Source: Alphaproteobacteria bacterium (GTDB lineage: Bacteria; Pseudomonadota; Alphaproteobacteria; JBMOFM01). From it: a DNA stretch of 64,000 nt. Positions 5,436-25,514 of the stretch are shown one piece after another; position 1 is the stretch's first letter; every line of letters starts with the position of its first letter. The notes beneath the pieces were generated by a model that worked only from the letters and a program-made list of their open reading frames with translations, made no database searches and was not told where the DNA came from. The translations under genes and the position numbers were made by a program. The stretch spans positions 21,847-85,846 of the forward strand of contig JBMOFM010000013.1 of the NCBI GenBank assembly GCA_049318825.1, given 5' to 3'.

Positions 5436-7136
5436 TTGAATGCATTTTTTCAAACACTAAAAAATCTTGGAGCTGCACGCCTTGCCATTATTGGTTTGGT
5501 AACCGTTGGCTTGTTGGGCTTTTTTCTATTTGTGATGCTCAACGCCTCTACGGGGGATATGGCTATTTTATACCGCGATCTTAACACGGCAGATTCAGCA
5601 GCCATTGTTCAAAAGTTAGAAGAAAAGAAAATTCCCTACAACATTAGCGATGATAGCGCTAGAATAAGCGTGGCCGCTAAAGAAGTAGGGCGTATTCGCA
5701 TGGTATTGGCGCAGGATGGTTTGCCATCTGGCGGTTCTATTGGGTATGAAATTTTTGATAAGGGCAACCAATTGGGGGCCACCAGTTTTGTCCAGAATAT
5801 TAATCAAATACGGGCATTAGAAGGAGAATTGGCTAGAACCATTGCAACCCTAACCTCTGTAAAAAATGCCCGTATTCATTTGGTATTGCCTAAACGTGAG
5901 CTATTCTCGCGGGAGGCATCGCCCGCATCGGCCAGTGTTTTTTTACAACTCAAAGGCTCATCGGAGCTGAGCAAGGAAAATGTGCTGGCTATTCAGCAAT
6001 TGGTGGCGGCGGCAGTGCCCCAACTGAAACCATCGGCCGTTTCAGTGATTGATTCTCGCGGTAATTTATTGGCAAAAGCAAGGGATGAAAATGAAGCCGG
6101 CTTTGCGATGCAAAATGCCGAAGAAATGCGCCGGTCTTTTGAAGGCCGAATGAGTGCTCAAATAGAAGATTTATTAAGTAAAAGCCTTGGTTATGGCAAG
6201 GTGCGTGTCACTGTGGCCGCTGATTTAGATTTTGACCGCGTGCAAACCAACACTGAAAGCTATGATCCCGATCAACAGGTGGTGCGTTCTACTCAAACCT
6301 CTGGCGAAGATAATAAAAATAAAGAAGGGGCAGATAAGGCCGTATCGGTGGGTAATGCATTACCCGGCGGCGCGCAAGGGAATGGCCAGGAAGATGCGAT
6401 ACAATCCACACAAAGCCGTAAAGAAGAAACCACCAATTATGAAATCGGTAAAACCGTTAAAACACAATTGCGCGAGGGTGGGCAGGTTAAGCGTTTAGCC
6501 GTGGCCGTATTGGTGGATGGTATTACCACCAAAAAAGAGGATGGCAAAGAAGAATATGCCCCGCGCAGCGAAACTGAATTAAAGCAACTCAATACCTTGG
6601 TGCGCCAAGCCATGGGCTATAATAGTGAACGCGGCGATACGGTAGAAGTGGTGAATATGCGTTTTGCCGATAGTATGGCTGCCGATCAAGGAGAAAGCGG
6701 TCAAAAAGAAATTTTCATGGGCATGAACAAGGAAGATGTTATGAAAATAGCCCAAAGCCTGATGGTGGCTTTGGTGGCAATCATGGTGTTGTTGATGGTG
6801 GTGCGCCCCGTATTGATGCGGGTGTTGCAGGTGTCGTCTGGTCAGGCAGGCATTCCCATGAGTGATGATGACCGTGTGTTATTAGAACAAGCCATGAATC
6901 CAGCCGCAGCGTTAATGGCTCCTCATTCTTCCCATTCTTCTAATAGCGTGACTCAAGCTTTAGCTGATGCTGCGGGACAACCAGAAAATGAATTAGAACG
7001 GATGATTTCAATTAATCAGATTGAAGGTCAGGTACGGGCATCGTCGTTGCGTAAAATTGGCGATATGGTTGAAAGGCATCCTCAAGAAACCGCCAATATT
7101 ATTAGAAGTTGGATGTATCAAGAGCAGGCAAATTAA
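5436..7136 (+). CDS. fliF: flagellar M-ring protein FliF
   Basis: 566 aa; N-terminal TM helix, FliF/YscJ domain, second TM near C-terminus (IAQSLMVALVAIMVLLMVV); first gene of fliF-fliG-flbE-fliN-flbD arrangement. Confidence 0.9.
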   Translation: MNAFFQTLKNLGAARLAIIGLVTVGLLGFFLFVMLNASTGDMAILYRDLNTADSAAIVQKLEEKKIPYNISDDSARISVAAKEVGRIRMVLAQDGLPSGGSIGYEIFDKGNQLGATSFVQNINQIRALEGELARTIATLTSVKNARIHLVLPKRELFSREASPASASVFLQLKGSSELSKENVLAIQQLVAAAVPQLKPSAVSVIDSRGNLLAKARDENEAGFAMQNAEEMRRSFEGRMSAQIEDLLSKSLGYGKVRVTVAADLDFDRVQTNTESYDPDQQVVRSTQTSGEDNKNKEGADKAVSVGNALPGGAQGNGQEDAIQSTQSRKEETTNYEIGKTVKTQLREGGQVKRLAVAVLVDGITTKKEDGKEEYAPRSETELKQLNTLVRQAMGYNSERGDTVEVVNMRFADSMAADQGESGQKEIFMGMNKEDVMKIAQSLMVALVAIMVLLMVVRPVLMRVLQVSSGQAGIPMSDDDRVLLEQAMNPAAALMAPHSSHSSNSVTQALADAAGQPENELERMISINQIEGQVRASSLRKIGDMVERHPQETANIIRSWMYQEQAN

Positions 7137-7164
7137 GGACTATTGTTGAATATAAGAGGTAATC

Positions 7165-8181
7165 ATGCGGTTGCGTGAAGATTTTAGATCGTTAAATGGC
7201 ACTGAGAAAGCGGCAATTTTTATGTTGTCATTGAATGAGGATCAGGCTGCCAAAATTTTTGAGCAAATGCATGAAGAGGAAATAAAAGAGCTTTCGCAAA
7301 TTATGGCTAATCTAGGCACGGTAAGCTCTGGCGTGGTGGAACGCTTATTCGTTGAATTTGCGGATCAGATGTCCAAAACCGGCAATTTGGTGGGTACTTA
7401 TGAAAGTACCGAGCGATTGCTGTTAAAGGTGATGGATAAAAACAAAGTGGCCGGCATTATGGAAGAAATGCGCGGGCCAGCTGGTCGTACCATGTGGGAT
7501 AAATTGGGCAATGTGAATGAGAATGTGCTGGCGAATTATCTGAAAAATGAATACCCCCAAACCGTGGCCGTGGTGCTTTCTAAAATTAGACCCGACCATG
7601 GAGCAAGGGTATTGCAAATATTGCCCGATACTTTTGCCATGGAAGTGGTGATGCGGATGTTACGCATGGAAACCGTGCCCAAAGAAATTTTGGAGGATGT
7701 GGAAAAGGTGCTGCGCAATGAATTTATGACCAACCTAGCCCGCACCGCTAAACGCGATTCTCATGAAATGATGGCGGAAATATTTAATAATCTTGATCGG
7801 GCGATTGAGGGGCGGTTTATGTCGTCTTTAGAAGAGCGTAATCGTGATTCGGCTGAAAAAATCAAGAGCTTGATGTTTACCTTTGAAGATTTGAATAAAC
7901 TCGACCCCACTGGCATACAAACATTAATGCGCAGTATTGATAAAGAAAAAATGCCCTTGGCACTAAAAGGCGCCAGCGATGCCCTCAAGGATTTATTTTT
8001 CAGCAATATGTCTGAGCGTGCTTGTAAAATTTTGAAAGATGAAATGGCTTCTTTGGGGCCAGTGCGCCTGCGGGATGTGGAAGAGGCGCAGCAAATGATG
8101 GTAACTGTGGCCAAGGATCTTTCTGCCAGAGGAGAGTTGGTATTAGCGGATGGTAAGGGAGATGATGAGCTGGTTTACTAA
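7165..8181 (+). CDS. fliG: flagellar motor switch protein FliG
   Basis: 338 aa; FliG middle and C-terminal domains recognisable ([25 protein letters not shown]...; charged C-terminal helix region). Confidence 0.9.
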
Positions 8182-8220
8182 AAATTTTGAGGTGTATGAG
8201 AGATTGTAGGGGTAAAATCA

Positions 8221-8841
8221 TTGAGTGGTATTAAGCTTTTTGAGTTTTCAGAATTTAATGAACGGCCAGTGGTGGAGCCTGAACCTGAGCCGATAGATGA
8301 GCGTGCCCTACCACAATATAATGATTATCAGATGGAAGAAGCAACCCGCCATGCTTTTGAACAAGGCACAATAGAAGGGGTAAAGCAAGCAGAAGAAGGG
8401 CTGGCCAGAATAGCTGCCGATTTAGCCAATAACGCCGTGCAACAATTACAGTTTTTATTGGAGGCGGAAGATAAAAGAGATGAAAAAGCCGAGAAAGAAG
8501 CGATAAAATTGGCCGTGTTATTAGCTAAGCATTTGGTGCCGCAACTGATGAGCCGTCACCCCATGGAAGAAATTGACAATATATTGGGTCAGGTTTTGGC
8601 ATTAAGGGTAGAAGAACCGCGCATTACATTAAAGGTTCACCCCATGATGGTAGAAGAAGTAAAAAGCCGTTTTACGGTTCTGGCTGAACAAGCCGGCTTT
8701 AGCGGTAAATATTTAGTATTGGCAGAAGCCGGCTTACAGCCGCCAGATATAAAAGCAGAATGGCAAAGTGGTGGAATGGAGCGGTTGATTAATCAATTAT
8801 GGGATCAGGCAAAAGATTTATGCCTGCGGGCAGTAGAATAG
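8221..8841 (+). CDS. FliH/FlbE-like flagellar assembly protein (TTG start)
   Basis: 206 aa acidic coiled-coil protein between fliG and fliN, the position occupied by flbE (fliH-like) in the Caulobacter fliF operon. Assignment is by context plus weak FliH-like character. Confidence 0.5.
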   Translation: MSGIKLFEFSEFNERPVVEPEPEPIDERALPQYNDYQMEEATRHAFEQGTIEGVKQAEEGLARIAADLANNAVQQLQFLLEAEDKRDEKAEKEAIKLAVLLAKHLVPQLMSRHPMEEIDNILGQVLALRVEEPRITLKVHPMMVEEVKSRFTVLAEQAGFSGKYLVLAEAGLQPPDIKAEWQSGGMERLINQLWDQAKDLCLRAVE

Positions 8842-8859
8842 AAAAAGGGGATAGATAAA

Positions 8860-9192
8860 ATGGCGAGTGATTTTAATTTGCATGAGCTGGAAGGTGGCAT
8901 GCAAGGCGGTGATAGCGGTGGCGGCGGTAATGGTATATTACAGCAGCGTGACCTTGATGCGATTTATGATATTCCCGTGCAAATATCGGCGGTGTTGGGT
9001 AAATCCAGCATGCAGGTAAGCCAGTTGCTGAAATTGGGGCGCGGTGCAGTGGTGGAGCTAGACCGCAAAGTAGGGGAGGCGATTGATATTTATGTGAATA
9101 ATCGCTTGGTTGCCCGCGGTGAGGTGGTGGTGGTTGAAGATCGCCTTGGGGTGACCATGACTGAAATTGTAAAATCTGATCGTACAAGCTAG
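8860..9192 (+). CDS. fliN: flagellar motor switch protein FliN
   Basis: 110 aa; C-terminal SpoA motif VGEAIDIYVNNRLVARGEVVVVEDRLGVTMTEI; good RBS (AAAGGGGA) upstream. Confidence 0.85.
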   Translation: MASDFNLHELEGGMQGGDSGGGGNGILQQRDLDAIYDIPVQISAVLGKSSMQVSQLLKLGRGAVVELDRKVGEAIDIYVNNRLVARGEVVVVEDRLGVTMTEIVKSDRTS

Positions 9193-20488: not shown

Positions 20489-20540
20489 AAAGACAGCTTG
20501 GCTGTCTTTTTCCCCTCTCCCTTAGGGAGAGGGATTTTTT
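20489..20540 (+). terminator. tandem intrinsic terminators downstream of uvrD
   Basis: Hairpin 1: AAAGACAGC-ttg-GCTGTCTTT followed by TTTT. Hairpin 2: CCCTCTCCC-tta-GGGAGAGGG followed by ATTTTTT. Confidence 0.75.
20513..20533. repeat. palindromic repeat copy 1: CCCTCTCCC-TTA-GGGAGAGGG
   Basis: Perfect 9-bp stems; identical stems recur at 22310-22330 with an inverted loop (TAA). Confidence 0.8.
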
Positions 20541-20587
20541 GAGTTCTTTTGATTTTTATTGAGCAATCAAAGCAAAATGGATAAAAA

Positions 20588-21673
20588 ATGAGCGACGAAC
20601 AGTGGTTGAATATGCCTCACTTGCCTTCTTTAGTGATTAAAAATTTTCGCTGCCTTGAAGATTTAACCATTCAAAAGCTGGGGCATGTGAATTTAATTGT
20701 GGGCGCTAATAATTCAGGCAAAAGCACCATTTTGGAAGCTTTAAGGATTTATGCTGGAGAATTAGCAGACTTTAGGTTGTTCTTCGATTTATTATCCGCA
20801 AGAGATGAATTTATTCCCTCTCATTGGTCGGCGCAAACTCATATTGTACAATCTTACCAAGATCATCCTGCTAGGTCTTTGTTTACCAATAGAGCGATAG
20901 AAAAAAATAAAAAAATTGAAATAGGTGACATCAATAGTCTTCAGAATGGCGTGATTGTTGAAGGAGAATTTGAACATTTAGGAGAATTTTATGTTGGCTT
21001 GAAAGTTGTTTCCAAATACAATGGACTTGAAAGGTCTACGGCTGGAATTTCATTGCTTCATTTGGGCTCATATGTTGGAGATAAAAAAGCAACCTCTCCA
21101 TACAAAGATGGTTATGTTTCTTCACAATTGCCTTCAACTGATGACCAGATGGCTTTGTTTGCAGAAATAAATAGAGAATATGGCGATAATCAAATTTTAA
21201 CTGATGCCCTTAAAATCATTGAGCCGCGCATCATCAATGTTTTTTTTGATCCTATTGATCAAATATGTTTTGTAAAGCATCAAGATTTCCAGAAAACCAT
21301 CCCGCTAAAAACCTTAGGCGAAGGGATGATGCGCATATTGCAACTGGCTTTGTTTATCCCTAGAGCGCAAAAAACTGGATTTTTACTGATTGATGAATTT
21401 GAGAATGGTTTATATTGGCGTACGCAAAGCAAAATTTGGGAATTTTTATTTGAAATAGCCAAACGCTACAATATTCAAATTTTTGCGACCACTCATAGTA
21501 AAGATACCATCAACAGCTTTGCAAAAATAGCCCTTTCAAGAAAAGATATGGAAGGGGTATTGATCAGTTTGGATAGAAGTGCCGCAAAAAAGGATAATAA
21601 TAAAATCATCGCCATTGAATATGATGAGGAATCCCTAGCCAATATCATCGAAGATAATATTGAGGTGCGATAA
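20588..21673 (+). CDS. OLD-family/AAA_15-21-type ABC ATPase, ATPase subunit of a split OLD-like two-gene module (AriA/AbiLi-like)
   Basis: 361 aa; Walker A GANNSGKST near the N-terminus, ABC signature-like LGEGMMR, Walker B FLLIDEFENGL, H-loop ATTHS; AT-rich relative to flanking uvrD/prmA; 5-bp gap to the next gene. Confidence 0.8.
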   Translation: MSDEQWLNMPHLPSLVIKNFRCLEDLTIQKLGHVNLIVGANNSGKSTILEALRIYAGELADFRLFFDLLSARDEFIPSHWSAQTHIVQSYQDHPARSLFTNRAIEKNKKIEIGDINSLQNGVIVEGEFEHLGEFYVGLKVVSKYNGLERSTAGISLLHLGSYVGDKKATSPYKDGYVSSQLPSTDDQMALFAEINREYGDNQILTDALKIIEPRIINVFFDPIDQICFVKHQDFQKTIPLKTLGEGMMRILQLALFIPRAQKTGFLLIDEFENGLYWRTQSKIWEFLFEIAKRYNIQIFATTHSKDTINSFAKIALSRKDMEGVLISLDRSAAKKDNNKIIAIEYDEESLANIIEDNIEVR

Positions 21674-21678
21674 CCCTC

Positions 21679-22446
21679 ATGAGTGAAAAAATACTATTGG
21701 TAGAAGGCTTTGCAGATCAGGCATTTTTTAAAAAACTACTTGAAGGTGATGATAATCTGATTATTCACAATATTAGTGTGGAACAACAAGGTGGCAGGCA
21801 GGGTTTATTCAGCGATAAAAAACTTGCCGAACACGTTAAGAAAATTCGTGGAACAAAAATATCAGCGATTGCCATGATTGTTGATGCTGATTCAGGTGAT
21901 AACAATATGGCTGGTTTTCAGCATACAAAAAATATCCTATCTGAAAAATTACAAGAACATGACTATATTTCAGAGCCTGAATTGGTGCCTAATAGTTCGG
22001 GTTTAATATATAAACATAAAGAAGAAGGCATTATTCCTTTTGGTTTATATATTATGCCTAATAATCAAGATAATGGTGAAATGGAAGATTGGTTAGCAAA
22101 GTGCCTTACGCCAGATATTCAACCAATGCTTAAATGTGCTGAAAAAATTGTGCAGAAAGTAGCAAAAAAATTTTCCTCACCATCTTTTAAACCCAATAAG
22201 ATCAATAAAGCAAAAATTTACACCATGTTGGCTTGGTTGCGTGATCCGGGGGTAGAAAGCCATAAGCTGCTTAAAGATAACAAAATTAACCACCAAAGCC
22301 GTCTTTTTTCCCTCTCCCTAAGGGAGAGGGATTTGTCTGTTTCTAAGGTAAGGGGCAGGAATGGCCATATTGGCTGTTGCTGTAATTGCCGGCGGGAAAG
22401 GTTAGAAATTAATGCTAAAAACATGCAACAAATTAAAATGATATGA
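21679..22446 (+). CDS. TOPRIM-like partner protein (DUF4276/RloB- or AriB-like) of the split OLD-family module
   Basis: N-terminus MSEKILLVEGFADQAFF (conserved Glu) and IAMIVDADSGD (DxD) about 60 aa later form a TOPRIM signature. About 210 aa of plausible protein are followed by a tail that reads through a palindromic repeat (SLSLRERD) into low-complexity sequence (GCCCNCRRER), so the C-terminus is probably altered. Confidence 0.6.
   Translation: MSEKILLVEGFADQAFFKKLLEGDDNLIIHNISVEQQGGRQGLFSDKKLAEHVKKIRGTKISAIAMIVDADSGDNNMAGFQHTKNILSEKLQEHDYISEPELVPNSSGLIYKHKEEGIIPFGLYIMPNNQDNGEMEDWLAKCLTPDIQPMLKCAEKIVQKVAKKFSSPSFKPNKINKAKIYTMLAWLRDPGVESHKLLKDNKINHQSRLFSLSLRERDLSVSKVRGRNGHIGCCCNCRRERLEINAKNMQQIKMI
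22310..22330. repeat. palindromic repeat copy 2: CCCTCTCCC-TAA-GGGAGAGGG (inside the 3' end of the TOPRIM-like ORF)
   Basis: Same 9-bp stems as copy 1. It is preceded by TTTTTT and followed by ATTTG, whereas copy 1 has TTTTCC before and ATTTTTT after. Confidence 0.8.
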
Positions 22447-22577: not shown

Positions 22578-22625
22578 TATAATGGCACATAAATAAAAGA
22601 ATTCTTTTATTTATGTGCCATTATA
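22578..22625. repeat. 48-bp perfect palindrome centred on GAATTC, carrying TATAAT on both strands
   Basis: TATAATGGCACATAAATAAAAGAATTCTTTTATTTATGTGCCATTATA reads identically on both strands. It lies between the defence-like module and prmA and overlaps the ORF-track start of prmA. Confidence 0.8.
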
Positions 22626-25453: not shown

Positions 25454-25514
25454 AACTTGAAATTTATTCTATTTACTGTAATTTGCATTGTATTTTACAA
25501 TAAATAAAATTCTT

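Follow-up and report, generated by a model that had tools for sequence, protein, structure and literature searches.

An acquired ABC ATPase and DUF3226 TOPRIM-like gene pair of the candidate family PDC-M38 between uvrD and prmA

An AT-rich two-gene cassette lies between uvrD and prmA

In the 64,000-nucleotide window analysed here (contig JBMOFM010000013.1 of assembly GCA_049318825.1, positions 21,847 to 85,846; Alphaproteobacteria bacterium), a two-gene cassette of ~1.8 kb is inserted between uvrD and prmA. Gene 1 encodes an ATP-binding cassette (ABC) ATPase, and gene 2 encodes a putative TOPRIM-like protein of the domain family DUF3226. The two genes are on the same strand, and 5 nt separate the stop codon of gene 1 from the start codon of gene 2; these open reading frame (ORF) positions and this spacing are exactly those given in an earlier note on this DNA, made by a model from the letters and their ORFs. 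The coding features of the pair are:

20588-21673, + strand: gene 1, ORF of 361 amino acids (aa), stop codon TAA at 21671-21673
20702-20728, + strand: gene 1 Walker A, GANNSGKST, G39-T47
21314-21334, + strand: gene 1 signature, LGEGMMR, L243-R249
21383-21409, + strand: gene 1 Walker B, LLIDEFENG, L266-G274
21485-21499, + strand: gene 1 H-loop, ATTHS, A300-S304
21679-22446, + strand: gene 2, ORF of 255 aa, ATG at 21679
21679-22296, + strand: native part of gene 2, residues 1-206, DUF3226 TOPRIM-like putative nuclease (PDC-M38B)
21703-21705, 21715-21717, 21883-21885 and 21889-21891, + strand: gene 2 codons for E9, D13, D69 and D71
22054-22065 and 22207-22209, + strand: gene 2 codons for MPNN and K177

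The GC content of the cassette, calculated between the two copies of a flanking repeat (20538-22297), is 0.352, the minimum among the 1.76-kb windows of the 64-kb window. The remaining 1.76-kb windows (n = 1,175) have a mean GC content of 0.44 with a standard deviation of 0.028, and none is as low as the cassette. The GC content at third codon positions is 0.33 for gene 1 and 0.28 for gene 2, versus 0.44-0.47 for uvrD, prmA and pepP. The AT-richness relative to uvrD and prmA that the earlier note had pointed out is borne out by these values.

Gene 1 encodes a compact Rad50/SMC/OLD-type ABC ATPase

The product of gene 1 contains the Walker A, signature, Walker B and H-loop motifs of ABC ATPases, and all four motifs, which the earlier note had recognized, show no variation across 25 aligned homologues (35-43% identity). 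In Pfam, gene 1 matches AAA_15 (4.6e-27), AAA_21 (2.8e-22) and SMC_N. The best sequence match in the PDB is the Thermus OLD nuclease (TsOLD, 6p74), and the top matches also include OLD, PtuA and Rad50 structures. The structure of the gene 1 product is predicted with confidence, with a predicted local distance difference test score (pLDDT) of 82 and a predicted template modelling score of 0.86.

Gene 1 also has weak matches to ATP-binding models of transporters in NCBIfam and Pfam, which might suggest that gene 1 encodes an ABC transporter ATP-binding subunit and gene 2 an accessory protein. However, these matches have lower scores and shorter alignments than those listed above, and there is no permease gene nearby. 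The ranking of the gene 1 matches effectively refutes a transporter, to which we give next to no weight. By sequence, the gene 1 product is a compact Rad50/SMC/OLD-type ABC ATPase and not a transporter subunit.

The homologues of gene 1 align from residue 12 or before, and thus ATG 20612 (M9) is likelier to be the true start. In the public annotation, the gene 1 product has 346 aa, implying a GTG start at 20633; this start is disfavoured because it would remove L12, S14 and L15, which are invariant among the homologues. Both exact proteins have public records, derived from the metagenome-assembled genome of an alphaproteobacterium.

Gene 2 encodes a DUF3226 protein with TOPRIM-like features

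The product of gene 2 matches DUF3226 (Pfam, 5.1e-37, residues 4-210), a family with a median length of 223 aa across 80 loci. The TOPRIM pattern is present: a glutamate follows strand 1 (E9, in VEG), and a DxD (VDADSGD) is positioned ~60 residues further on. In an alignment of 32 family sequences, residues E9, D13, D71, M126-P127, N129, G133, E136 and K177 are invariant, while at least 90% of the sequences have D69; the glutamate and the two aspartates on which the earlier note had based its TOPRIM assignment are thus invariant or nearly so.

Comparison with other families points in the same direction. OLD-like_TOPRIM (PF20469) matches residues 2-52 of gene 2 with 21.4 bits, below the Pfam cut-off of 23.2. 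The best PDB sequence matches of the gene 2 family profile are to AriB (8ux9 and 8v46, E ~3e-3), over VEGxxD. Secondary Pfam matches of the 32 family members are confined to OLD-like_TOPRIM (seven members), RloB (one member, 1.2e-3) and DUF4435 (one member), and the secondary PADLOC matches are AriB (ten members, best 1.3e-6), AriAB, mad4, GajA and HEC-01B, with one extra marginal match to PDC-M42C (E 0.0069). In an hhalign comparison of the gene 2 family with an AriB-like protein from a Pseudoalteromonas plasmid, the glutamate aligns with the glutamate and the DxD with a DxE (E 5.5e-4, probability 30%).

A Foldseek search of the gene 2 model against the PDB gave no match at E <= 0.001; behind the DUF3226 founder structure, the named structures that come closest are the TOPRIM regions of BpOLD and GajA, none of them significant. 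PH0156 of Pyrococcus horikoshii (PDB 2p62), a protein with no assigned function, is 15% identical, a likeness that says nothing on mechanism. The assignment of gene 2 as a TOPRIM-like protein is well supported in sum, with no single line of evidence being decisive. Together with the type of the gene 1 ATPase, these family matches agree with the split OLD-family pair proposed in the earlier note.

The pair belongs to the PADLOC candidate family PDC-M38

Searches of both proteins with Pfam and PADLOC profile models, the check that the earlier note had proposed, returned PDC-M38A and PDC-M38B in addition to DUF3226. In PADLOC, gene 1 matches the PDC-M38A model PDLC04611 with 5.2e-94 and four more PDC-M38A models with 4e-40 to 5e-20, while gene 2 matches the PDC-M38B models PDLC04623 (8.4e-43, residues 1-208) and PDLC04624 (4e-27). 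All 32 aligned relatives of gene 2 match PDC-M38B. The genes have the layout of PDC-M38, with A followed by B, adjacent and on one strand. The PDC-M38A score of gene 1 is far above those of AbiLi (1.1e-47), AriA (1e-27) and GajA. On these matches, the pair belongs to PDC-M38 and is neither PARIS nor AbiL. The earlier note had left the choice among AriAB, AbiL and a new variant; none of the three applies, and the pair is not a new variant because PDC-M38 is already catalogued in PADLOC.

The PDC systems are 145 untested "guilt-by-embedding" candidates collected from BREX, DISARM and type I restriction-modification loci (Payne et al., 10.1101/2024.01.29.577857). A literature search on PDC-M38, DUF3226 and PF11536 found no main-text mention, and PDC-M38 in a supplement only. 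The best models of both proteins, the gene order and the adjacency are those of PDC-M38, and relatives lie within BREX, as in the defining study. The copy in the window differs in that it is solitary with no defence neighbours found, is divergent, and has the C-terminus of its B protein replaced.

The pair differs from PARIS, AbiL, OLD and Gabija

PARIS (AriA/AriB) is class 4 of the OLD systems, and the OLD nucleases and GajA are classes 1-2. In PARIS, AriA holds AriB and frees it on sensing Ocr, whereupon AriB cleaves tRNA (PMC11464382, PMC12409363); the triggers are anti-restriction proteins of the Ocr type, and the cleaved tRNA is tRNA-Lys (PMC11464382). The best stretches of the AriA models on gene 1 cover only residues 196-306 (1.2e-27 and 4.2e-26), and only the C-terminal 91 columns align when gene 1 is compared with AriA by hhalign. 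Gene 2 has no match to DUF4435 or AriB at E <= 1 in Pfam or PADLOC, the similarity to AriB being remote and at the level of the family. Identity with PARIS is rejected on the partial AriA match and the missing AriB match. The proteins also differ in size: the gene 1 ATPase is 353-361 aa in length, whereas AriA is ~55 kDa with hexamer-building insertions, and the family effector is ~220 aa, whereas AriB is 35 kDa.

AbiL shares the two-gene architecture of an ATPase and a TOPRIM-like protein (PMC13064643). The AbiLi model PDLC02336, second to PDC-M38A, matches gene 1 end to end (residues 14-361 against profile positions 4-340 of 340). Gene 2 has no match to RloB or AbiLii in Pfam or PADLOC, and PDC-M38A fits gene 1 far better; AbiL was rejected on these grounds.

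The pair shares its ATPase type and the acidic TOPRIM residues with the OLD nucleases and GajA. In those proteins, however, the ATPase and the TOPRIM domain are fused in one chain, whereas in the window they are split into two ORFs, and the pair lacks a dedicated helicase partner such as the GajB of Gabija. HEC-01 and mad3/mad4 of MADS are likewise dyads of an ABC ATPase and a small TOPRIM-like protein embedded in larger defence loci. HEC-01B and mad4 weakly match gene 2 and its relatives, and HEC-01A and mad3 weakly match gene 1, but they are different families, the matches being marginal (E 0.02-0.03 in the case of the window protein).

The 3' end of gene 2 is altered and contains a copy of the uvrD terminator hairpin

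The cassette is bracketed by two copies of a 37-nt direct repeat, 34 of whose 37 positions are identical by local alignment. The features at the edges of the cassette are:

20489-20509, + strand: first hairpin 3' of the uvrD stop codon (AAAGACAGC-TTG-GCTGTCTTT), read from the sequence, with no T-run
20501-20537, + strand: direct-repeat copy 1, 37 nt, holding the canonical uvrD terminator hairpin (local alignment)
20538-20587, + strand: AT-rich leader of the cassette, promoter presumed
22298-22334, + strand: direct-repeat copy 2, holding a second uvrD terminator hairpin, within the gene 2 frame (codons 207-219)
22335-22446, + strand: read-through tail of gene 2, non-native residues up to residue 255, then the stop codon
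22356-22385, + strand: QEWPYWLLL*, perhaps what is left of the native C-terminus in another frame (not significant)

The canonical uvrD terminator hairpin at 20513-20533, followed by a T-run, was called by a terminator scan. The hairpin sequence CCCTCTCCCTWAGGGAGAGGG occurs twice in the 64-kb window, versus 0 occurrences expected, and its second occurrence, at 22310-22330, is located inside gene 2. Repeat copy 2 starts at codon 207 of gene 2, and from about residue 207 the protein is the product of read-through. Consistent with this, the protein matches the family profile only up to residue 211 (profile position 211 of 222), residues 215-255 have pLDDT values below 50, and the ORF exceeds all others of the 80 in length. 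On this evidence, ~17 native C-terminal residues of gene 2, including a conserved W-L, are replaced by read-through sequence, in line with the suspicion of the earlier note that about 40 C-terminal residues are non-native.

With QEWPYWLLL* spliced in behind residue 210, the profile score gains 9 bits and the match reaches position 218 of 223; the gain is not significant, with 3 of 20 shuffled versions of the downstream DNA equalling or beating it. Either the cassette junction truncates gene 2, or a ~47-nt hairpin-bearing segment has been inserted into gene 2.

The earlier note had described tandem terminators and palindromes at the boundaries of the pair. The canonical terminator and a 48-nt palindrome on the prmA side stand, while the first hairpin at 20489-20509, which has no T-run, was not called by the terminator scan. 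In the leader, a weak TTGAGC-17-TAAAAA match seen by eye hints at a promoter; a scan of 20538-20587 for consensus promoters reported nothing.

The cassette is an insertion at a housekeeping locus

The genes that flank the cassette are housekeeping genes, encoding MlaC, MlaA, UvrD/PcrA, PrmA and a PepP-like peptidase. A search of the genome collection for close relatives with PrmA as the probe found none, and the nearest UvrD relatives, from metagenomes, are only 48-59% identical. In two of them, uvrD is directly followed by prmA; in locus L110, the two genes lie at 5908-8106 and 8110-8973, followed by pepP. A strain-level empty site was not found, the comparison being one of uvrD-prmA adjacency in distant relatives. 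The lowest GC content in the window, together with this adjacency, shows that the pair is an insertion. By composition and comparison, the cassette is thus horizontally acquired, as the earlier note had proposed, and accessory. A possible second GC-poor island, the second-lowest GC stretch of the window near 39 kb, was ruled out by its housekeeping content (pyruvate dehydrogenase E1 and glutathione synthetase).

The position of the pair immediately downstream of a gene for a UvrD-type helicase, on the same strand, raises the question of whether it is a DNA-repair accessory of uvrD, either as a Gabija-like unit, given that in Gabija a UvrD-like helicase accompanies an OLD-type ATPase-TOPRIM protein, or as a RecF/RecR-like pair. 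However, the upstream gene encodes a full-length housekeeping UvrD/PcrA (805 bits), has native GC content, and is separated from the pair by a hairpin and a canonical terminator. Furthermore, relatives have uvrD and prmA adjacent without the pair, none of 80 UvrD loci carries it, and of 43 homologue loci surveyed, only a few have a UvrD-type helicase among the nearest genes. A role as a repair accessory is accordingly very improbable, and the reading of uvrD as GajB was rejected on the housekeeping nature and native GC content of uvrD, the terminator, and the uvrD-prmA adjacency in relatives.

In 3 of 61 other loci, two from Thiomargarita and one from Rivihabitans, the pair is flanked by direct repeats that are host-specific, 64-73 nt long and 81-95% identical:

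L044:4471-4534 and L044:6746-6809
L029:1208-1277 and L029:3623-3692
L021:8657-8729 and L021:10732-10804

In L044, from Thiomargarita, the left repeat coincides with the final 64 nt of the homoserine dehydrogenase ORF upstream. The repeat-bracketed units of these three genomes are 2.1-2.4 kb in length and contain no recombinase gene. Based on the repeats in the window and in these loci, DUF3226/PDC-M38 pairs might constitute a distinct, fifth kind of split OLD-like system, with an unusually small effector of ~220 aa, that perhaps moves as a recombinase-less unit of 1.8-2.4 kb and leaves 37-73 nt of host sequence duplicated at the 3' ends of housekeeping genes. We consider this quite unlikely; if true, it would represent an undescribed insertion route for small defence cassettes. 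Where copies are flanked by direct repeats derived from the host, these hint at how two-gene units might spread with no recombinase of their own.

Relatives are paired, widespread and in part embedded in BREX loci

The DUF3226 family comprises 3,178 representatives at 50% identity (E <= 1e-3). Relatives are present in 294 of 185,579 species genomes, among them Gamma- and Betaproteobacteria, Cyanobacteria, Myxococcota, Methanosarcinales/ANME and one other alphaproteobacterium. An ATPase homologue is located directly upstream in all 80 loci that include upstream DNA, with an overlap of mostly 1 or 4 nt.

In at least 13 loci the pair is embedded in BREX, between a gene for a PglX-type methylase (pglX) and pglZ/brxL, and this embedding points to defence. 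A survey has found TOPRIM-linked OLD-type ABC ATPases to be common back-up effectors inside BREX loci (PMC12839542). The relatives in BREX loci are consistent with the candidate anti-phage system proposed in the earlier note. That note had named two outcomes that would speak against it, namely that gene 2 lacks TOPRIM similarity or that the genes are conserved core genes with no defence neighbours, and neither was found.

Elsewhere, the pair occupies other sites. Eight loci of Methylobacter, Methylovulum and Methylococcaceae (L010, L030, L037, L039, L041, L050, L064 and L068) have the pair between hisG and hisD in the same direction, a site normally within the histidine biosynthesis operon; an additional ORF of 270 aa lies upstream of the pair in four of these loci. 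In two Moraxellaceae loci, the pair is beside valS. It is the sole cargo of a 6.4-kb ColE-type MOBQ mobilisable plasmid and is present on several small Acinetobacter plasmids. On one 9.7-kb Acinetobacter plasmid (NZ_CP035939, L165, 343-2180), it adjoins a tet(39)/tetR unit and an ISNCY transposase.

Two loci contain additional ATPase genes. A Psychrobacter locus (L001, 3253-4641 and 2681-3244) has a second AAA_15/21 ATPase (462 aa) and a small downstream gene on the other side of valS, and a Thiomargarita locus (L077:8814-15484) has three ATPase homologues within 7 kb. These arrangements suggest that ATPase-based modules cluster or duplicate.

A putative ATPase-controlled nuclease for abortive infection

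We interpret the locus as an acquired PDC-M38 cassette that likely encodes an ATPase-controlled nuclease for abortive infection, in a copy that is possibly impaired, and we assign this reading a probability of about 0.6. By analogy with PARIS, OLD and Gabija, the two proteins would be co-produced and would form a complex, in which the gene 1 ATPase would act as the infection sensor and the keeper of the effector. The gene 2 TOPRIM protein would be the nuclease, released or switched on during phage attack, and the activated nuclease would cut tRNA or DNA, halting the infected cell. Complex formation, nuclease activity, substrate, trigger and a role in defence are all features that we infer from this analogy.

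Several observations weigh against this interpretation. Among the window proteins examined, comprising the five genes that flank the cassette and six other ORFs, there is no further defence gene, and the phage collection contains no homologue of gene 2. The members of PDC-M38 are all still untested candidates, and HEC-01, a comparable candidate of an ATPase and a TOPRIM protein, gave no protection (10.1101/2024.01.29.577857). In gene 2 itself, the nearly invariant C-terminal W-L helix is absent, and near-invariant positions are altered (W183M and Q187L).

The state of gene 2 bears on how intact the copy is. Since its native C-terminus is replaced, the copy may be weakened or inactive. In the extreme case, the window would hold an inactive, decaying remnant in which the hairpin copy destroyed the C-terminal helix. 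The lost W-L, the early end of the profile match, the low-confidence tail and the altered near-invariant positions would fit such decay, as would the strong divergence of gene 2, which is among the most divergent family members with 24-34% identity to the others. However, the two ORFs are intact in all other respects, the catalytic and ATP-binding residues are all kept, and no internal stop codon or frameshift is present over ~1.85 kb of AT-rich sequence, where stop codons arise easily. We hold a dead remnant to be unlikely, while giving it some weight.

A further alternative is a selfish addiction module of the toxin-antitoxin type, in which a TOPRIM toxin would be checked by the ATPase and would mainly stabilize the plasmid or island that carries it rather than stop phages. 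The small plasmids described above, one of which has the pair as its sole cargo, and the occurrence of the pair as a solitary insert between housekeeping genes are in keeping with addiction, and for PARIS itself, behaviour resembling that of a type II toxin-antitoxin pair has been described (PMC13064643). Nevertheless, the BREX operons speak for defence, small plasmids commonly carry defence genes too, and the addiction and defence roles are compatible with each other. Addiction as the main role retains a small share of the probability and is, in our view, unlikely.

With an ATPase-controlled nuclease as the preferred interpretation, the pair is a further instance of the widespread dyads in which an ABC ATPase is joined by a TOPRIM protein and which function, or are suspected of functioning, as abortive-infection back-ups. 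PDC-M38 pairs are already searchable in PADLOC, and this one would not surprise a specialist. The DUF3226 effector branch is absent from the domain set used to annotate the AAA15/21 ATPase defence tree of PMC11464382. A tractable DUF3226 member, for example the Citrobacter freundii plasmid copy (NZ_CP055541, 508-2354) in an Escherichia coli-compatible ColE backbone, is a reasonable target for study.

Other features of the window

A 1,570-aa ORF at 25488-30200 has a GC content of 0.40, lower than that of the neighbouring genes. Its sole Pfam match is a short M48 peptidase segment at residues 140-201, and the other ~1,350 residues match no family. Between the cassette and prmA, the window contains one further element:

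22578-22625, no strand: 48-nt perfect palindrome (TATAATGGCACATAAATAAAAGAATTCTTTTATTTATGTGCCATTATA), unique in the window

This palindrome covers ATG 22613, the mechanically assigned start of the prmA ORF, and thus ATG 22679 is the likelier start of prmA.

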